From a virus (Duplodnaviria > Heunggongvirae > Uroviricota > Caudoviricetes): DNA of 6,386 bases. A model generated the notes under the pieces. It saw only the letters and a list, made by a program, of their open reading frames with translations. It was not told the DNA's origin and did not search any database. Position numbers and translations under genes: made by a program. Location: the IMG/VR virus record IMGVR_UViG_2529293138_000005, positions 1-6,386 of that record; one strand, written 5' to 3'. Position 1 is the first letter of the stretch. Each line of letters begins with the position of its first letter. Shown one piece after another: positions 1-6,386 of this stretch.

Positions 1-288
1 ATGAAACTTAAATATTCTGGCTTAACTGCCAGCGGCACCGCTCGGCCTGAAATCCGTAACGGCGATATTTACCGCGATAAATATGGCGGCATGGTAACGA
101 TTAAAGGCGTGGCAGAACGGCGCATCACCTACCGCCGTGAAGGTTACGAATATGATTGCGTGATGCCTGTTTATCAATTCCGGCGTGATTTCACGCTGGT
201 AGGCCAGCGTAAAGCCGTTAATCAGAAACGTGCAACAGGTTATATCCGCAAAATCCGTGAAATGCTGGTCGCAGGGGGTAAGAAATGA
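1..288 (+). CDS. Hypothetical small basic protein (95 aa); begins at the window edge, so may be 5'-truncated
   Basis: Uninterrupted ORF in the same orientation as the downstream operon. Its stop TGA (286-288) overlaps the next ATG (285-287) as ATGA, suggesting translational coupling. No recognisable family motif. Confidence 0.45.
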   Translation: MKLKYSGLTASGTARPEIRNGDIYRDKYGGMVTIKGVAERRITYRREGYEYDCVMPVYQFRRDFTLVGQRKAVNQKRATGYIRKIREMLVAGGKK

Positions 289-452
289 AACTGGCACCGA
301 ACGTAAAACGATTACCGAAAGATAAATACACCGATGCGATTATTTTTGCGGGTATTGATGCTCACTCATTCGCAGAGCATTACATCATTGCACAGGCCAA
401 AAAAGCAGGCGATCCAGTCCCTCCCGTTTATCTGGGGGCGTTAATCAGTTAA
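285..452 (+). CDS. Hypothetical small protein (55 aa), absent from the supplied ORF track
   Basis: ATG at 285 preceded by a strong Shine-Dalgarno-like GGGGGT at about 273-278. Hand translation gives MKLAPNVKRLPKDKYTDAIIFAGIDAHSFAEHYIIAQAKKAGDPVPPVYLGALIS with TAA at 450-452. Start overlaps the upstream stop. Confidence 0.4.
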   Translation: MKLAPNVKRLPKDKYTDAIIFAGIDAHSFAEHYIIAQAKKAGDPVPPVYLGALIS

Positions 453-502
453 GCGAACTGGATAACCTCCAGATTGTTGATGATGGGCGATACAGGGCGA
501 CG

Positions 503-1684
503 GTGATACGCGCCGGAAATATTGAAGAGCCGCAGCTGTTAACCATCGCCACGAAACTGGCGATCGCCGGAGTCCAGGAGGCGCGGCTACTTTCTGAAAA
601 TTTCGAATTGCTGGAGGAATGGAGCGACCAGCTTCCACGGCTTAGGGAGACATGGGAACGCGGGGAAAGCCTGAGCAACCAGCGAAAAACCACGCTACCA
701 ATGAGCGTGGGATCTGCCGGATACGACACACAACTTGATTACGTGGTTAAGGGAATTATTCCGGCTGTATCGCTTTGCAGCATATACGGGGCGAGCGGTT
801 CCTATAAATCATTCCTTGCCGGATCGTGGGCGTGTCACGTTTCCACTGGCCGCCAGTGGGGATGCCGCAGGGTGGCGCATGGCGCTGTTCTCTATGTGGT
901 TGGTGAAGGCGGTATCGGCGTTCCTCGTCGTGTAAAAGCCTGGGAGGTTGTGCACGGTGAGCAGGTGAAAAATCTGTATCTGGTAAACCGTCCCATCTTT
1001 CCGGCTGCCCCGCTTGATGTTGATGAAATGGTTATCGCTGCCCGTCAGGTGGAACGGGAAACGGGTAAACCTGTACGCATGATTATTCTGGATACGCTGG
1101 CGCGGTGCTTTGGTGGCAATGATGAAAATGATTCCCGTGATATGGGGGCGTTTATCCGTGGGTGTGACGAACTGAAACGACGCACAGGGGCCACGGTGCT
1201 GGTGGTTCACCATTCCGGCAAGGATGAAACAAAGGGAGCGCGTGGTTCCAGTGCATTTCGTGCTTCGCTGGATGCTGAATACCGGATACGCAGGGAGGAC
1301 GCAGGAAGCGAAGCCCTGGTTATCTCATGCACCAAAATGAAGGATGCGGAGGAACTCAAAGAAGCCGCATATGACTTACGCGTGGTGGAGCTTTTTACCG
1401 ACGCTGACGGGGAGTTAATCACGTCGCTGGTGGTGGTGGATAAGCCGCGCCCTCCCGTTGAACTGGAGCGCATCGAGGAGGCTGGCAACAAGACGGAAAA
1501 CCATACCGCGCTATGGGGATGCATACGTTCACGCACACAGAACGGCGACAAGTGCACGATCCCGCTGTTACGTGATGACATGAAAAAACTGGGGTACGAA
1601 ATGAAAAACTTCCGGCGCTGGCTGTACAAGCTGGAAAAAGACAGGGTTATTCGTATCGATGGGGATGATGTAGCGCCGCTATAA
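503..1684 (+). CDS. Replication protein, RepA-like RecA-family ATPase (AAA_25-type helicase/initiator) with a C-terminal extension
   Basis: Motifs read directly from the translation: P-loop-like GASGSYKS, Walker-B-like MIILDTLARCFGG, and HHSGKDETKGARGSSAFRASLDAEY, typical of RepA/AAA_25 proteins. GTG start at 503; an in-frame ATG at 701 is an alternative start. Followed immediately by an iteron-like block. Confidence 0.75.
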   Translation: MIRAGNIEEPQLLTIATKLAIAGVQEARLLSENFELLEEWSDQLPRLRETWERGESLSNQRKTTLPMSVGSAGYDTQLDYVVKGIIPAVSLCSIYGASGSYKSFLAGSWACHVSTGRQWGCRRVAHGAVLYVVGEGGIGVPRRVKAWEVVHGEQVKNLYLVNRPIFPAAPLDVDEMVIAARQVERETGKPVRMIILDTLARCFGGNDENDSRDMGAFIRGCDELKRRTGATVLVVHHSGKDETKGARGSSAFRASLDAEYRIRREDAGSEALVISCTKMKDAEELKEAAYDLRVVELFTDADGELITSLVVVDKPRPPVELERIEEAGNKTENHTALWGCIRSRTQNGDKCTIPLLRDDMKKLGYEMKNFRRWLYKLEKDRVIRIDGDDVAPL

Positions 1685-1860
1685 AGTGAGGTGCAAAAGC
1701 GAGGTGTATAGAAGGAGGGCCAAAATTAGACCGCTACCCCTCACTTTTCGGCCTGTATACATCCTCAAAAGTGAGGGGCAAAAAAATACTTATGAAACAC
1801 ACACATAGAAAAAGCGAAAATCTCAAGCGAGACGGAGCCAGACACTTTAAAAAGTGAGGC
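1682..1860. repeat. Iteron-like repeat block (four copies of an AAAGTGAGG-type motif, one inverted); candidate origin or operator region
   Basis: Motif copies at 1683-1693, 1737-1751 (inverted), 1767-1778 and 1850-1860. Copies 1737-1748 (CCCCTCACTTTT) and 1767-1778 (AAAAGTGAGGGG) form a perfect 12-bp inverted repeat around an 18-nt spacer containing GTATAC. Region is AT-rich and sits directly after the rep stop. Confidence 0.5.
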
Positions 1861-1883
1861 GAAAAACTGAGAGTTTGCGAGAA

Positions 1884-2135
1884 ATGAACAAAATGCGTAG
1901 AGACAGAACAGAGCCAAAATATAAAGCGTTAGACATGACAGAGCACGCTTTAAAGGTGGCAATCAGAACGATAGACCGCCACGCGGGGGAAGGATACGCG
2001 AAGGAACATCCCGACATGATAAGCGCATTCATGACCACAGCAGCGGCAAACTTTGCCACGCTGACAGAACGGGAGATTGCCGAAGCGGAACAGGTAACAA
2101 CCATCAACGTTAAAACCGGAGAGCAGACAGCATGA
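1884..2135 (+). CDS. Hypothetical protein (about 83 aa), translationally coupled to the ssb-like gene
   Basis: ATG at 1884 with GAGAG about 10 nt upstream. The track's GTG start at 1854 lies inside an iteron copy and is less likely. Stop TGA 2133-2135 overlaps the ssb ATG at 2132 (ATGA). Confidence 0.5.
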   Translation: MNKMRRDRTEPKYKALDMTEHALKVAIRTIDRHAGEGYAKEHPDMISAFMTTAAANFATLTEREIAEAEQVTTINVKTGEQTA

Positions 2136-2555
2136 CAGCACAGATAGCGGCTTACGGACGGCTGGTGGCTGACCCGCAGTTAAAGACCACCAGCAAGGGT
2201 ACACAGATGACGATGGCGAGTATGGCGGTCCCCCTTCCGTGCAGCCAGGCAGATGACGGAGCGGCGACGATGTGGTTATCCGTCATGGCGTTTGGCAGAC
2301 AGGCCGACGCACTGGCAAAACAACCACAAAGGCGAACTGGTGAGCGTGGCGGGTAACATGCAGGTAAGTCAGTGGACAGGCCAGAACGGCGAAACGCGGC
2401 AGGGCTGGCAGGTTATCGCAGACAGCGTAATCAGTGCGAGAACGGCGCGACCTGGCGGCAAAAAAGGCCAGCAGGGGCAGGCTACTGATGCACTGAACAG
2501 GGCAAAACAACAGGCGGGTAACGATGATCCGTACGGGGATAACATACCGTTTTAA
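2132..2555 (+). pseudogene. ssb: Single-stranded DNA-binding protein (SSB) gene split by a +1 frameshift near 2317-2324
   Basis: The N-terminal part (frame of 2132) reads AYGRLVADPQLKTTSKGTQMTMASMAV...WLSVMAFGRQADALAK, an SSB OB-fold pattern. The C-terminal part (frame of 2253) reads HKGELVSVAGNMQVSQWTGQNGETRQGWQVIADSVI and ends in the acidic tail DDPYGDNIPF (compare E. coli SSB ...DDDIPF). The two halves are in different frames; removing one A from the AAAA run at 2317-2320 restores a continuous reading ...ALANNHKGELV.... Confidence 0.65.
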
Positions 2556-2571
2556 GCAACGAGTAACAGAA

Positions 2572-2593
2572 GCCGGAGAAGTCCGGCTTTTTT
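2572..2593 (+). terminator. Rho-independent terminator closing the rep-ssb operon
   Basis: Stem GCCGGA, loop GAAG, stem TCCGGC, then TTTTTT; located 17 nt after the ssb stop. Confidence 0.7.
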
Positions 2594-2600
2594 ATGCCCC

Positions 2601-2628
2601 AAAAAAAGCCCGGAGGGTCTTATCGGGC
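2601..2628 (-). terminator. Possible minus-strand terminator; with the previous hairpin forms a bidirectional pair
   Basis: On the minus strand: stem AGCCCG, 11-nt loop, stem CGGGCT, then TTTTTTT (complement of the A-run 2601-2607). No convincing minus-strand gene upstream of it in the window. Confidence 0.3.
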
Positions 2629-2710
2629 TTTTGCATATGAGGTTTTTTTGGTGCGCTGACACACATGATCGGGATAATAATTTCATAATTTGCAACATAA
2701 CTCAATATTA

Positions 2711-2738
2711 TTGCACAAAATGCAATCCTGATTATAAT
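2711..2738 (+). promoter_or_regulatory. Near-consensus sigma70-type promoter with an overlapping dyad, upstream of the head operon
   Basis: -35 TTGCAC (2711-2716), 16-nt spacer, -10 TATAAT (2733-2738). The -35 lies inside the dyad TTGCA-N5-TGCAA (2711-2725), and the -10 lies inside the perfect palindrome GATTATAATC (2730-2739). Confidence 0.45.
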
Positions 2739-2796
2739 CATGACTGGATGAACAATCCAGTTATGATTTTTAAGTTCGAAGAGGAATTTCTTACTA

Positions 2797-3002
2797 TGGC
2801 TGAAGAGAAAAAAGGCGGTGTTTCGGTGTACATAAGCTCCGACATCGTGGAGGCGCTCAAGGAACGCCACCAGCAGAACGTAAAAGCAGGCATTGCGGCA
2901 GGACTTGATCCACTGGCGATGGTTGAGCCGTCAACAGGCTGGCAGGTGCGCGCCTATTTACGTGCGGCGCTGGGCATGAATCAGACTCATGGGGGTGAAT
3001 AA
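2797..3002 (+). CDS. Hypothetical small protein (68 aa) at the head of the capsid operon; possibly a ribbon-helix-helix-like or scaffold-like protein
   Basis: ATG at 2797 with AAGAGGAA upstream. Stop TAA (3000-3002) shares a base with the capsid ATG (3002-3004). The longer track ORF starting at 2631 would overlap the promoter region and is rejected. Confidence 0.5.
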
Positions 3003-4057
3003 TGGCAGGCAAAGCAACGGCACTTACCACTAATCAGCTTTTCACGTACATGAATCGCGGGGATATTGCGGAATTTAAATTCAGTCCGCTGTTTACCACG
3101 CTGTTTTTCACGAACGTGGCGACATTCAGCACCCAAAACATCATGCTGGATACCCTGGACATTGAAGAAGTCACTATGTCGGCGTTTTGTTCTCCTATGG
3201 TTGGCAGCCAGGTACAGCGCGATAAAGGGTACGAAACCAGCACAATCAAACCTGGCTACATGAAGCCAAAGCACGAAATCGATCCAACAAAGACCATCAT
3301 GCGCATGGCTGGAGAAGATCCGGCACAGCTTAACGACCCTACCTACCGCCGTATGCGCCTGATTACTGGCAACATGCGCCGCCAGATAAACGCCATTAAA
3401 GCGCGCGTGGAATGGCTGGCGGTGAATGCGATAACGACCGGAAAAAACATCATTGAGGGCGAAGGCATAGAACGCTATGAAATCGACTGGAAGATACCGG
3501 GAAAAAACATCATAGAGCAGGCCAAAGGCCGTAAATGGTCCGAGCAGGACAAAGAAACCCACGATCCAATCTATGATATCGAGCTTTATGCGGATCAAGC
3601 AGATTGCCCCGCCAACGTCATGATTATGGGCGCAGAGGTATGGCGCACGTTACGCAGCTTTAAAAAATTCCGTGAACTGTACGATCTTTCCCGTGGTTCA
3701 GAATCCGCCGCAGAACTGGCCTGTAAAAACCTGGGCGAAGTGGTGAGCTTTAAAGGCTATCTGGGCGATATTGCCCTTATCGTCTATTCCGGCAAATATA
3801 CTGACAGCGACGGCACCGAAAAATATTTCCTTGAGCCTGATTTGCTGGTCCTTGGCAACACCAACAATAAAGGGCTGGTGGCCTATGGTGCGATTATGGA
3901 TCAGGAAGCGGTAAGAACGGGCGCAACGCAAAACATGTACTACCCGAAAAACTGGATTGAGGACGGCGATCCGGCGATTGAGTACGTGCAGACACACAGC
4001 GCACCGCAGCCGGTTCCGGCAGATATTCGCAAATTTGTTACCGTCAAAATTGGTTAA
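3002..4057 (+). CDS. Major capsid protein, lambda gpE family (351 aa)
   Basis: Collinear similarity to lambda gpE as recalled: FKFSPLF versus KFKFDPLF, TIKPGYMKPKHEIDP versus FTPGYVKPKHEVNP, DPTYRRMRLI versus DPAYRRRRII, FKGYLGDIALIVYSG versus YKGMYGDVAIVVYSG, LVLGNT versus MVLGNT, YPKNWIEDGDPA versus YPKNWVTTGDPA. Strong SD (GGGGGTGA) before the ATG. Confidence 0.9.
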   Translation: MAGKATALTTNQLFTYMNRGDIAEFKFSPLFTTLFFTNVATFSTQNIMLDTLDIEEVTMSAFCSPMVGSQVQRDKGYETSTIKPGYMKPKHEIDPTKTIMRMAGEDPAQLNDPTYRRMRLITGNMRRQINAIKARVEWLAVNAITTGKNIIEGEGIERYEIDWKIPGKNIIEQAKGRKWSEQDKETHDPIYDIELYADQADCPANVMIMGAEVWRTLRSFKKFRELYDLSRGSESAAELACKNLGEVVSFKGYLGDIALIVYSGKYTDSDGTEKYFLEPDLLVLGNTNNKGLVAYGAIMDQEAVRTGATQNMYYPKNWIEDGDPAIEYVQTHSAPQPVPADIRKFVTVKIG

Positions 4058-4068
4058 CGGGGGATTCT

Positions 4069-4404
4069 ATGGACACTCCATACATTGAGTTATTTGCAGG
4101 CAGTCAGCAGGTATCCACGACACTGGTACATTTTGCCGCTGATGCTGGCGTTATTCAGGAATTTACCCCGCTGATGCTGGCGGACAATGGCGAGTTTAAG
4201 CCGTGGGATGGTCAGGAATCTGGCAAGGCTGTTTATCTGACTTCGTACCCAGTGGACACGTCAACGCAGAAATCAGCACAGTGTTACAAGACGGGGATAT
4301 TCAATATTGCCGCCGTTAACTGGCCTGAGAGCGTCGACACCGACGTGAAAAAATGCGCCGCCTTTGCGGGTTCTGGCGTATCCGTTCAGCCGCTGGCGCG
4401 ATAA
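4069..4404 (+). CDS. Head decoration protein, lambda gpD family (111 aa)
   Basis: Similarity to lambda gpD as recalled: TPLMLADNGEFKPWDG versus TPLMLDTSSRKLVAWDG, and YKTGIFNIAAVNWPESVDTDVKKCAAFAGSGVSV versus [44 protein letters not shown] upstream. Gene order E then D is the reverse of lambda (D then E). Confidence 0.85.
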   Translation: MDTPYIELFAGSQQVSTTLVHFAADAGVIQEFTPLMLADNGEFKPWDGQESGKAVYLTSYPVDTSTQKSAQCYKTGIFNIAAVNWPESVDTDVKKCAAFAGSGVSVQPLAR

Positions 4405-4478
4405 GCAGGGGGAACGATGGCAGAAACCCAGGCGATGACGGCGACATCGATCGCATACTGAAAACCATCTGAGACAAG

Positions 4479-4500
4479 GCCGGAGAAATCCGGCTTTTTT
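4479..4500 (+). terminator. Rho-independent terminator after the decoration gene, immediately upstream of cosQ
   Basis: Stem GCCGGA, loop GAAA, stem TCCGGC, then TTTTTT. Differs from the terminator at 2572-2593 by a single loop base. Confidence 0.7.
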
Positions 4501-4572
4501 GCGGGTCCTTTCCGGCGATCCGACAGGTTACGGGGCGGCGACCTCGCGCGTTTTCGCTATTTATGAGCCTTT
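4501..4572 (+). other. Lambda-type cos site 1 (cosQ-cosN), rightward orientation; cosN GGGCGGCGACCT at 4533-4544
   Basis: GCGGGTCCTTTCCGGCGATCCGACAGGTTACG, then GGGCGGCGACCT, then CGCGCGTTTTCGCTATTTATGAG. This is near-identical to the lambda right-end/left-end junction as recalled (...ACGGGTCCTTTCCGGTGATCCGACAGGTTACG | GGGCGGCGACCTCGCGGGTTTTCGCTATTTATGAAAA...). Confidence 0.8.
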
Positions 4573-4574
4573 TC

Positions 4575-4651
4575 AGGTTGGTGGTGGTGGTTTTGTTGTT
4601 CGCTGTATCTCTATGAATAAAAAGGGAAAGATAACCACAAAACACCAACCT
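4575..4651 (+). repeat. cosB-like region of cos 1: inverted repeats around an A-rich spacer, unlike lambda R sites
   Basis: AGGTTGGTGGTGGTGGTTTTGTTGTT (4575-4600) and AACCACAAAACACCAACCT (4633-4651). The 9-bp cores AGGTTGGTG (4575-4583) and CACCAACCT (4643-4651) are exact reverse complements. Lies between cosN and the terS start, where lambda carries its Nu1-binding sites. Confidence 0.4.
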
Positions 4652-4692
4652 GAAGCATTAACTAAGTGTGGGTATTGATGAAATCGCACCTG

Positions 4693-5220
4693 ATGAATAA
4701 AAAAACCATGGCGCAAAGCTGCCGTGTAAGTGCTACAGCGTTCGACAAGTGGGGAGTGACTCCCGTTGAACGTAAAGGCCGTGAGGCGTTTTATGATGTT
4801 GCCAGCGTGATAGACAATAGGGTTAACAATGCAATTAACCAGGTTACAAACGACAAAGGCGATATTGATGATGATGAACTTTTACGCGTAAGAATCAGAT
4901 TACTGACAGCACAGGCGGAGGCGCAGGAGCTTAAAAACGAGCGCGAACGCGGCGACGTGATTGATACAGGTTTTTGCCTGTACGCGCTTTCAAAGCTGGC
5001 GAGCCAGATTTCTTCAATCATGGACAGTTTGCCGCTTACCATGCAAAGGCGCTTCCCGCAGATTACTCCCGCTATGCTGGATGGGCTTAAAAGGGAAGTG
5101 GTTAAAGCCTGTAATGCCAGTGCCACAGTTGCCGACAACCTACCGAAGATACTGGCTGATTACCTGATGGAAACTACCGGAGACGTACCGGAGAAGTTGC
5201 TACAGAAGAAAGTCGAGTAA
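4693..5220 (+). CDS. Terminase small subunit, lambda Nu1-like
   Basis: C-terminal half collinear with lambda Nu1 as recalled: LTAQAEAQELKNERE versus LTRAQADAQELKNARD, GFCLYALSKLASQISSIMDSLPLTMQRRFPQ versus AFCTFVLSRIAGEIASILDGLPLSVQRRFPE. The N-terminal putative DNA-binding region (MNKKTMAQSCRVSATAFDKWGV) is divergent. Start ambiguous: GTG 4666, ATG 4678, ATG 4693 or ATG 4708; 4693 chosen because it aligns with the Nu1 N-terminus. No large terminase ORF follows. Confidence 0.85.
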   Translation: MNKKTMAQSCRVSATAFDKWGVTPVERKGREAFYDVASVIDNRVNNAINQVTNDKGDIDDDELLRVRIRLLTAQAEAQELKNERERGDVIDTGFCLYALSKLASQISSIMDSLPLTMQRRFPQITPAMLDGLKREVVKACNASATVADNLPKILADYLMETTGDVPEKLLQKKVE

Positions 5221-5246
5221 CAGACGCGCAATTATTGAACAAAACT

Positions 5247-5450
5247 GAGAAACGACATGAAAGCGTCATAAATCGCCATTTTAGATGATTACCGTGTCGT
5301 TTCTTTTTATTGTGTATCTATTTAAAAACAAATAGTTATGTTCGAGAATTACCGACATGCTTTTTCCAGAAAAATTTTCATAAACAGATAAAAACCGCGA
5401 GGTCGCCGCCCCGTAACGGGCCATAATTCCAGGAAGGACCCGACGACACC
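5247..5450 (-). other. Lambda-type cos site 2 in inverted orientation (cosN AGGTCGCCGCCC at 5400-5411, i.e. GGGCGGCGACCT on the minus strand), with lambda-like R-site inverted repeats
   Basis: Reverse complement of 5343-5411 reads GGGCGGCGACCTCGCGGTTTTTATCTGTTTATGAAAATTTTTCTGG..., resembling the lambda left end (GGGCGGCGACCTCGCGGGTTTTCGCTATTTATGAAAATTTTCCGG). GAAACGACA (5249-5257) and TGTCGTTTC (5295-5303) are exact inverted 9-mers resembling lambda R-site cores as recalled. The cosQ-like side (5412-5450) is only partly lambda-like. Confidence 0.7.
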
Positions 5451-5475
5451 AGACAATCAGAACATCGGGAACACA

Positions 5476-5760
5476 ATGACAGAAGCCGAACTACTGAAAG
5501 TAATCTGCCGTATTACCGGAATCAGCCAGACAGCAGGCAAACAGGAGGCCACGCAGCCGGACAGCGTGATAGCCGAAAATTACGCGCGTGTGGTGGCTGA
5601 GGTGATGCGCCGTGATGGTATTGAGCTTAACGGCGTGGATATGCGCGACATACGGATCAGAGTTCTGGAGTTGTTGTCATATCGTCGCCGCGTGGAGATG
5701 TATCGGGAGAGCGAGAAAAAGACTTACCAGTGGAAGAAACCGGAGCGGCTGCGTACGTAA
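5476..5760 (+). CDS. Hypothetical protein (94 aa) immediately beyond cos 2
   Basis: ATG at 5476 with GGGAA about 8 nt upstream. No recognisable motif. Arg/Glu-rich C-terminus. Confidence 0.4.
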   Translation: MTEAELLKVICRITGISQTAGKQEATQPDSVIAENYARVVAEVMRRDGIELNGVDMRDIRIRVLELLSYRRRVEMYRESEKKTYQWKKPERLRT

Positions 5761-5933
5761 TGCGTACGGACATCGAGACAAAGACGAACAGTATTCTGGT
5801 TCAGTGCAAAACAACGTTAAACGTGGTTTTGCGTCCAGAGTCATCGTAATGGTTTTATGCGTCCTGCGTTGCGCTGGTGGATTTGAGGGATATAGCTGGT
5901 AGTGGTAAATCCCTTTTGCGTGGCGGTGCGATG

Positions 5934-6021
5934 GCTGCATGGTGGAAATCACCACGAAGGGGAGGTGATAAACACTCCCCCTTTTCGTGTGGTGCATGGT
6001 CAAAATGACCACGGAGGGGAG
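5934..6021. repeat. Two copies of an approximately 30-nt direct repeat (period 57 bp) with embedded hairpins, in a non-coding region
   Basis: GCTGCATGGTGGAAATCACCACGAAGGGGAG (5934-5964) versus GGTGCATGGTCAAAATGACCACGGAGGGGAG (5991-6021). Embedded palindrome TGGTCA-AAA-TGACCA (5997-6011). Imperfect hairpin CACGAAGGGGAG...CTCCCCCTTTTCGTG (about 5953-5989). Hairpin GACTATC-TCAAA-GATAGTC (6026-6044). Confidence 0.4.
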
Positions 6022-6271
6022 AACCGACTATCTCAAAGATAGTCACCCCATACCAGGATCACGCTAATAACGCACAACAGAGTGACCCATAGCCACCCTG
6101 TTCAACCGTTCCGGCTGACTGGACAGCATCATCACCATGATGGTGACGCAGCCCACCAGCAACCATAACGATTTCCTTTACAGCTGATGTGCTTTTTTGC
6201 TGATAAGGCGTAACCAGTTGATTGTTCCAGAATCACCCATTGGGGGAGGCTGGGCGGCCTGCTGTGGGCTT

Positions 6272-6288
6272 TTCCACCATTGGTGGAA
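6272..6288. repeat. Perfect 17-bp palindrome TTCCACCA-T-TGGTGGAA
   Basis: Read directly from the sequence; 8-bp arms around a single central base, typical geometry for a dimeric DNA-binding protein site or a tight hairpin. Confidence 0.3.
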
Positions 6289-6386
6289 AGGTGCACATCT
6301 GGATCATCATTACGGTGATCAATGGTATGTAAAACCCACCAGCCTGATTGACATTTAACCGGAAAAAAGCCAGGTAGCCCCGTCAT

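Follow-up and report, generated by a model that had tools for sequence, protein, structure and literature searches.

Paired hairpin repeats at the right end of an Escherichia coli phage-inducible chromosomal island: candidate tandem terminators within a shuffled array of palindromic modules

What is the role of two near-identical, partly palindromic repeats in apparently gene-free DNA near the attachment (att) site of a phage satellite? This question is raised by a stretch of 6,386 nucleotides, positions 1 to 6,386 of the IMG/VR virus record IMGVR_UViG_2529293138_000005 (hereafter, the window). Judged from its gene content, the window forms the right-hand portion of a lambda-cos-type Enterobacterial phage-inducible chromosomal island (PICI) from Escherichia coli. 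The window is regarded as the right end of such an island because a capsid E gene, a decoration protein gene, a lambda-type cos site, and a Nu1-like small terminase gene (TerS) are followed by orfX, and the repeats are situated in the 626 bp downstream of orfX, in DNA running to the attachment site. An initial annotation had raised the nearness of an att site as one possibility, and a location in the att-proximal end of a mobile element was supported. Our tentative answer is that the repeats belong to a pair of serial intrinsic terminators with accompanying structural hairpins; the terminator-like anatomy, the membership in a large family of shuffled hairpin modules, and the Chi and IHF-consensus context were not part of that annotation.

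The direct repeat comprises 29 nt (5936-5964 and 5993-6021), with 25 of 29 positions (86%) identical and a spacing of 57 bp. A degenerate pattern built from both copies matched only those two places, with no match in any of 200 shuffles; in a test independent of this pattern, the best 29-mer direct match in 5600-6386 was also 25/29, as against a maximum of 22/29 in 300 dinucleotide-preserving shuffles. The two near-identical units 57 bp apart that had been annotated together with stem-loops thus exceed all shuffles, and the repeat is real; its length is 29 rather than 30 nt, and the natural unit is larger, namely, a mosaic cassette at 5881-6021, with a third G-rich hairpin extending to 6049. 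The fold of 5761-6070 was better than that of all 100 shuffles on both strands (z = -4.3 for + and -3.5 for -). The open reading frames (ORFs) overlapping the block had no match in Pfam, PHROG, NCBIfam, or PADLOC and were not conserved as ORFs in homologous loci, and 1-nt indels distinguish homologues immediately downstream of unit 2. On this sequence evidence, the block is non-coding, and its description as a structured non-coding cis-element agrees with the hairpins, the fold z-scores, and the lack of a coding signal. The features between the end of orfX and the end of the window are listed here, with the strand in parentheses and related loci designated by L numbers.

5752..5768 (no strand assigned): palindrome CGTACG-TAATG-CGTACG over the orfX stop codon, read from the sequence; the module is also found in L001, L010, and L037
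5806..5832 (+): hairpin with a 13-bp stem, GCAAAACAACGTT-A-AACGTGGTTTTGC; inverted repeat 92% complementary, present in the minimum-free-energy fold
5873..5880 (+): Chi site, GCTGGTGG; left border of the cassette and mosaic breakpoint
5881..6021 (+): cassette holding both repeats, exchanged between islands as a block
5885..5917 (+): T1, terminator-like hairpin GGGAT...ATCCC (hairpin 5887-5913) then TTTT, from the sequence and the fold
5936..5964 (+): repeat unit 1, TGGTGG-AAA-TCACCA (5940-5954) then CGAAGGGGAG
5957..5985 (+): T2, terminator-like hairpin GAAGGGGAGGTG...CACTCCCCC (hairpin 5959-5981) then TTTT; fold z = -3.1
5993..6021 (+): repeat unit 2, TGGTCA-AAA-TGACCA (5997-6011) then CGGAGGGGAG
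6016..6049 (+): third G-rich hairpin, GGGG (6016-6019)...CCCC (6046-6049), around GACTATCT-CAA-AGATAGTC (6026-6044)
6128..6160 (no strand assigned): sibling module, consisting of the palindrome TCACCAT-G-ATGGTGA, ACGCAG, and then Chi on the - strand (6153-6160)
6211..6260 (no strand assigned): array unit of the common type, with the IHF consensus AATCAACTGGTTA on the - strand (6211-6223) and a degenerate palindrome CACCC-ATT-GGGGG (6234-6246)
6269..6290 (no strand assigned): palindrome CTTTTCCACCA-T-TGGTGGAAAG, an inverted repeat
6336..6343 (-): Chi site

A two-part element occurs twice in tandem in the cassette: a G-rich stem-loop, a T-run, and (C)GTGTGG are followed by a small hairpin of the form CAT-stem-AAA-stem-ACGRAG, and the 29-nt direct repeat corresponds to the second, small-hairpin part. 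The two parts interlock in that the purine tail of the small hairpin (GGGGAG) also supplies the 5' arm for the G-rich stem that follows. The third G-rich hairpin (6016-6049) is not followed by a T-run and represents a separate mosaic module.

Comparisons were made with annotated E. coli loci and 80 IMG/VR loci retrieved via orfX. In different islands, four sequence-unrelated G-rich stems, GGGAT/ATCCC, GGGGAGGTG/CACTCCCC, GGGTG (or G10)/CCCCCC, and GGGGATGGT/ACCATCCC, occupy an equivalent position ahead of the conserved (C)GTGTGG..CATGG hairpin, and a run of 4-8 T comes after each of them on the + strand. Since the structure and T-run are conserved while the sequence is free, these stems carry the signature of intrinsic terminators. 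Compensatory changes preserve the pairing of the small hairpin: across 13 distinct contexts, 98.7% of cells pair, one pair is changed from G-C to C-G in four sequences, and the homologous site of L115 reads CAT-AGAGA-AAA-TCTCT-AC, with three of the five stem pairs altered on both sides and the loop and flanks kept. The stems seen are GGTGG/TCACC, GGTCA/TGACC, and AGAGA/TCTCT, and the orientation relative to orfX was identical in all 19 contexts. Conservation in related elements, a check raised by the initial annotation, holds for both the repeats and their structure, with pairing maintained.

T1 (5885-5917) and T2 (5957-5985) each combine a G/C-rich stem-loop with a T-tract and are located in the sense orientation 125-225 bp past the orfX stop codon, orfX being the last gene on the + strand. 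We favor, as a possibility held with some reserve, that the cassette provides the packaging operon with intrinsic terminators in tandem, accompanied by structural hairpins. Under rightward transcription, the two serial terminators would stop the packaging-operon transcript, which would otherwise continue toward att, in the excised circle across attP into int and in the integrated state into host genes. The int gene of EcCIEDL933 shares its strand with the operon, and the circular order would therefore be orfX, array, attP, and int, such that unterminated late transcription would reach int. The small hairpins may act as structures rather than as specific sequences, most likely shielding the 3' end of the packaging-operon transcript or serving there as back-up or pause hairpins, and the duplication and patchy distribution of the cassette may arise from its exchange as a whole between islands at Chi and short shared sequences.

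A familiar counterpart is the tandem terminator of the rrnB T1-T2 type, in which a G/C-rich stem-loop and a T-run also occur twice in series after the last gene of a long operon, with the structure conserved and the sequence not. In contrast to that type, the cassette has runs of only four T, an extra conserved small hairpin with each putative terminator, and mobility within a hairpin array.

Regarding this mobility, the space between orfX and attR was found in 40 distinct versions, each a mosaic of short hairpin or palindrome modules (hereafter, the array) that are shuffled between islands. Its segments are ~25-230 bp long, and their ends in the window, as compared with those loci, recur at 5748-5760, 5838, 5880, 6021/6022, 6122/6123, 6253, 6264, 6289, 6318, and 6329. 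In L001 and L010, homology runs to 6021 with the cassette contiguous with the upstream segment; in L002, it breaks off at 5880 and resumes at 6022, with both neighboring segments present and the cassette absent; and in L114, the cassette lies in the middle of an array of another, IHF-type unit. In L115, unit 1 and T2 are almost unchanged though the orfX protein is only 42% identical. Islands carrying the module differ in their insertion loci, which adjoin yifB, hpt, or phoQ in addition to the window type, and any part of the module was found in 55 of 5426 complete E. coli genomes, with both units in two. Carriers of the cassette include E. coli PEC148 (NZ_CM168019.1, around 4,759,400-4,759,600) and Br_190_kylling (NZ_CP182387.1, around 4,237,570-4,237,710). 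A DNA-pattern scan of reference genomes did not find the hairpin module in other species, apart from scattered matches in unrelated phyla that were taken as chance, and a search of a phage collection returned no homologue of the array, the only match being one of 44 nt in the ant gene of phage SSU5.

The palindrome GACTATCT-NNN-AGATAGTC inside the third G-rich hairpin differs between islands in a particular manner: the flanks are kept, while the 3-nt centre is flipped (CAA/TTG and TTC/GAA), as seen at 6026-6044 of the window, at ~8006-8024 of L002, and in L011, L015, and L017. This pattern suggests hairpin-mediated loop inversion at the DNA level.

Several points weigh against the terminator reading. 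The T-runs in the window are short, with four T each, and a consensus promoter and terminator scan of 5200-6386 did not call T1 or T2, partly owing to their long loops. Across the arrays, the + strand shows no enrichment of terminator-like hairpins (12, vs. 34 on the - strand), and the mismatches in 157 distinct array hairpins (19 G.U and 21 A.C) show no bias, such that nothing points specifically to RNA over DNA. Sibling modules repeat the 3' half-site directly after CGCAG with a spacing of ~10-12 bp (ATGATTAC..ATGATTAC..ATGATTAA), and these copies look like protein half-sites on DNA. Furthermore, we know of no established role for a hairpin placed after a terminator, the contexts counted above are related by descent and, thus, not independent, and the transcription of the region, termination within it, and the role of the small hairpin were inferred, not observed.

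Some of these points lead to the alternative that the palindromes, TGGTSR-AAA-YSACCA, are DNA-level sites for a dimeric protein of the island, the helper phage, or the host, which together with the neighboring IHF-consensus units would form a nucleoprotein structure beside attP; we consider this rather unlikely. Consistent with such sites, the palindromes are nearly perfect and have 3-nt centres, the array hairpins show no asymmetry between G.U and A.C, and the sibling modules carry the half-site as one inverted and one or two direct copies that co-vary (ATGACCA, ATGATTA, and ATCACCA). The commonest mosaic unit of ~49 nt, (G)GTAAC/CTAAC-NNN-YTGAT-ATT... followed by a palindrome and a G-rich end that is often GCTGGTGG, begins with 13 nt that exactly match the IHF consensus WATCARNNNNTTR on the reverse strand. 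In 35 distinct arrays (21.3 kb), this consensus occurs 62 times on one strand and three times on the other, with 1.8 expected, and 50 of 71 units have a palindrome centred 27-31 nt away from the IHF anchor. In the predicted IHF sites of the array units (6211-6223 in the window), a match to WATCARNNNNTTR is accompanied by a neighboring A/T-rich tract; neither of the two repeat units has a match to the IHF consensus. However, the stem changes fully (GGTCA to AGAGA) in one homologous context while the loop and flanks remain constant, which is the opposite of base-specific half-site recognition. The 71 array units also have 36 distinct stems, and at least 20 unrelated ones occur at the same 27-31-nt position, which no single protein could read in their entirety. 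No candidate binding protein was found, the structural model of orfX having no match to a DNA-binding fold.

The array type was detected in 1246 of the 5426 complete E. coli genomes (~23%). Units are located at 6211-6260 of the window, at 4950-5370 of L113, and in the arrays of L006-L085, and EcCIEDL933 (NZ_CP008957.1, 1,694,760-1,695,600) carries seven in tandem. Repetitive extragenic palindromes (REP) and bacterial interspersed mosaic elements (BIME) likewise comprise extragenic, hairpin-forming palindromes downstream of genes in a mosaic of a few motif types with an IHF consensus, and BIME-1 (RIP or RIB) combines palindromic units with an IHF site. In contrast to REP and BIME, which are dispersed, the array is confined to the right ends of PICIs, where the sampled module hits lie with a median of one place per genome, and it has tandem units of ~49 nt, many unrelated stems, and Chi in some units; we noticed no REP-like sequence in the array when it was read against the consensus as we know it, with no REP search made. 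The centromere of the F plasmid, sopC, with its tandem 43-bp repeats that each contain an inverted repeat, is also similar in having units of ~45-50 bp with a short inverted repeat, but its units share one palindrome for one protein, whereas the palindromes of the array vary from unit to unit and are not accompanied by partition genes. Literature searches on PICIs with IHF or palindromes, PICIs with Chi or RecBCD, the hairpin sequences, and the small regulatory RNAs (sRNAs) of EDL933 found no description of the array, which appears to be undescribed and to be a more interesting object than the cassette.

It is likewise doubtful that the modules are recombination linkers without a function of their own, i.e., short shared sequences of more than ~25 bp among Chi sites that persist because co-resident islands exchange cassettes and accessory genes through them by RecBCD/RecA recombination, with the repeat as a by-product. 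The mosaic with its recurrent breakpoints, particularly those at 5880, 6021/6022, 6122/6123, 6253, and 6264, is in keeping with this view, as is near-identical cassette DNA beside the divergent orfX of L115. The final base of a Chi site, 5880, is where four distinct segments of alignment with other islands terminate, and in other islands, junctions coincide with Chi or with TGGTGG microhomology. L002 and L004 have accessory genes (PerC and others) lodged between their modules, and Chi occurs 47 times in the 21.3 kb of the 35 arrays, with 0.48 expected (~2.2 per kb in the arrays of related islands). Nevertheless, linkers leave the compensatory pairing of the stems and the T-runs after unrelated G-rich stems unexplained, and this view is compatible with terminators without being exclusive of them.

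The window as a whole is also rich in Chi, with nine sites in 6.4 kb, as against 0.18 expected from shuffles, a density approximately six-fold the E. coli average.

1198, 1426, 2161, 3874, and 5873 (+): Chi sites
2187-2194, 2867-2874, 6153-6160, and 6336-6343 (-): Chi sites

Given the opposite orientations of the two cos sites described below, each appears, by analogy with lambda, to have a correctly oriented Chi less than 1 kb away on the side of RecBCD entry. Chi-rich lambdoid phages are already known (PMC12315714). Near attR, a conserved module of ~63 bp is composed of Chi (+), the palindrome CCGATATGGGGATYCCCATAWCGG, and Chi (-) 55 bp further on, with both Chi sites facing the palindrome; it is present in L009 (384-447 nt after the orfX stop codon), L021, L022, L028, L048, L012, L075, and L119 (3600-3665).

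These contexts also allow the cassette to be viewed as a piece of an undescribed PICI cis-element, with tandem ~49-nt units and Chi in both orientations, that acts on DNA, an IHF-organised and RecBCD/Chi-controlled zone between the packaging operon and attP-int, which in our opinion is a fairly remote prospect. In such a zone, breaks at cos or at the palindromes could become recombination that yields packageable multimers, accessory cassettes could be swapped between islands, and the hairpins, including both repeats, could be structural parts. No recognisable Red or Gam homologue is encoded in the window. The sib/tI region of lambda is similar as a hairpin element beside att, with an effect on int that depends on the integrated or circular state; it differs in that sib/tI is located downstream of int and acts via RNase III, whereas int of EcCIEDL933 follows the array and shares its strand, which would mean insulation rather than retroregulation.

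An sRNA, derived from the 3' untranslated region of orfX or transcribed on its own, with the body hairpin in unit 1 and its terminator in T2 (~5920-5985), is improbable. It is in keeping with an sRNA that these are usually built as a hairpin with a Rho-independent terminator after it, that the fold is better than that of shuffles, and that the orientation is fixed. On the other hand, the consensus scan of 5200-6386 found no promoter-like site, and no Rfam family matched the window, including 5761-6386, at E <= 1 or 12 related loci at the gathering score. The module is narrow, being restricted to a minority of E. coli islands (the 55 genomes given above) and absent from the reference genomes of other species, and no conserved single-stranded seed is evident. 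The sRNA suggested by the initial annotation was, therefore, not supported as stated.

The same annotation had proposed an array for the binding of an integrase or excisionase, and two direct repeats in the att-proximal end of an integrative element would suit arm-type or accessory sites, although arm-type repeats would be expected to go with a single integrase type and to lie no more than ~250 bp from the core. We consider this highly improbable because the same module is carried by islands with different insertion sites and is missing from most islands, and because the arm region has its own repeats with the expected anatomy, GCGGGTTA in three direct and three inverted copies and GGTGTAGTYAAT in two. 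The window stops before att, and by homology, the only route to this distance, the module lies several hundred bp from the arm region. Islands at different chromosomal sites (yifB, tqsA, and phoQ) share nearly the same right-arm sequence, including GGTGTAGTTAATGGTGTAGTCAAT, which looks like arm-type integrase sites (L001 ~9410-9480, L002 ~9010-9080, L003 ~4530-4600, and L113 ~5650-5720).

A small protein, encoded by a 46-aa ORF on the + strand (5902-6042) or by one of the - strand ORFs, may be set aside with near certainty: the 57-bp spacing is a multiple of three, which keeps the units in frame, and the Prokaryotic Genome Annotation Pipeline (PGAP) annotates - strand hypothetical proteins across the module in some genomes, but no family matched in four libraries, the PGAP ORF of L003 has only 17 residues in common with the window ORF, homologues differ by the 1-nt indels downstream of unit 2, and no start codon has a usable Shine-Dalgarno spacing. 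Another ORF, of 84 aa (6132-6386, - strand), begins at the final base of the window and is without a family match; it overlaps array modules that are common to L029 and L031 and that continue into the conserved near-att palindrome. As judged from these features, it is probably not a gene.

Other identities were rejected. An array of clustered regularly interspaced short palindromic repeats (CRISPR) or solitary repeats of this type would also have a 29-nt, partly palindromic repeat with a 28-nt interval, whereas the block has two imperfect copies only (86% identical) instead of three or more near-identical ones with unique spacers of similar length, the interval consists of a conserved terminator-like hairpin common to islands, and an ORF scan, Pfam, and PADLOC found no cas-like ORFs in the window; the exclusion of CRISPR in the initial annotation was correct. 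To our knowledge, the repeats do not resemble the type I-E or I-F CRISPR repeats of E. coli. ToxIN-like RNAs of type III toxin-antitoxin systems are made up of 34-40-nt repeats in tandem that immediately precede an endoribonuclease gene of the toxN/abiQ type, and this identity was rejected for a block with two copies at a spacing of 57 nt and neighboring ORFs without PADLOC or Pfam matches. A scan for tRNAs and tmRNAs found none, and a reading of the array units as mini-ORFs (TTG ATA ... TGG TGG TAA) failed because unit lengths and frames vary. As far as we know these elements, integron attC, lambda nut boxA/boxB, lambda O iterons, lambda operator half-sites, matS, and a -10-like reading of the loops offered no match, spacing, or -35 element and were dropped. 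A second replication or packaging element, also raised by the initial annotation, does not fit a window in which the replication-origin iterons (AAAGTGAGG, ~1685-1870) and both cos sites lie elsewhere.

Taken alone, the two repeats are a modest result, probably terminators with accompanying hairpins at the operon end of a known type of phage satellite, and the cassette looks like an ordinary variant of familiar elements. The right ends of PICIs are usually drawn as blank space ahead of accessory genes. They carry an organised array with IHF-consensus sites, covarying palindromes, and Chi at ~10 times the genomic density. If functional, this array could bear on how satellites without recognisable recombination or anti-RecBCD genes make packageable concatemers, on the insulation or switching of int between the integrated and circular states, and on the movement of accessory or defence cassettes between islands.

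The remainder of the window begins at its left end with a DUF4222 gene, followed by a RepA-family helicase gene, the origin iterons, and an SSB gene, and then by these features.

3002-4057 (strand not listed): lambda gpE-type capsid gene, then the decoration gene
~4500-4570 (+): lambda-like cos site
4666-5220 (strand not listed): Nu1-family small-terminase-like gene (TerS)
~5225-5445 (-): second cos in inverted orientation, with lambda-type R-like CGTTTC motifs
5476..5760 (+): orfX, 94 aa, the final gene of the PICI packaging module; phrog_1561, E = 1.4e-50 (PHROG)

The Nu1-like gene is accordingly flanked by two lambda-like cos sites in inverted orientation, and two cos sites have already been documented for the prototype island EcCICFT073 (PMC6092414, PMC6739421). 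Islands that are ~90% identical are present in hundreds of complete E. coli genomes, and annotated homologous islands terminate at attR beside truncated host genes. The helicase gene (285-452 / 503-1684; near 437) and the SSB gene (2132-2356 / 2253-2555; near 2320) are each split by a frameshift relative to intact homologues in L002, which reflects either decay of this island copy or indel errors in the sequence.

Regarding orfX, the gene is directly upstream of the hairpin array in cos-type and capsid-forming PICIs alike, and the array starts at its stop codon. In capsid-forming PICIs such as EcCIEDL933, it is the last gene after that of the large terminase subunit, TerL, and between its stop codon and attR, related loci have non-coding DNA or a few accessory genes. 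The orfX product had no match in Pfam, NCBIfam, or PDB; its family is a narrow orphan, with 973 close homologues that reduce to only 37 cluster representatives in an exhaustive search, and an orfX-based search of reference genomes for related loci confirmed none. The AlphaFold model (predicted local distance difference test score, 76.8) consists of three helices and a conserved basic tail (WKKPERLRR) and gave no fold match, including to DNA-binding folds, with a best Foldseek E-value of 1.3. The invariable position of orfX next to the array raised the question of whether its product binds the array, which the model neither supports nor excludes.

The conserved end of orfX in most islands (..CCGGAGCGGTTGCGGCGGTAAC; 5741-5760 in the window) resembles the 3' end of the array unit (..GAAGTCGGCGCGGTAAC), and on this resemblance, the array units may have originated by serial duplication of the end of orfX together with its downstream hairpin. 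In capsid-forming PICIs, five direct GTGAC(A) repeats with an exact 10-bp spacing are present immediately after the orfX stop codon (L003 3905-3955, L004 ~4075-4110, and many IMG/VR loci), and they look like a phased protein-binding array.

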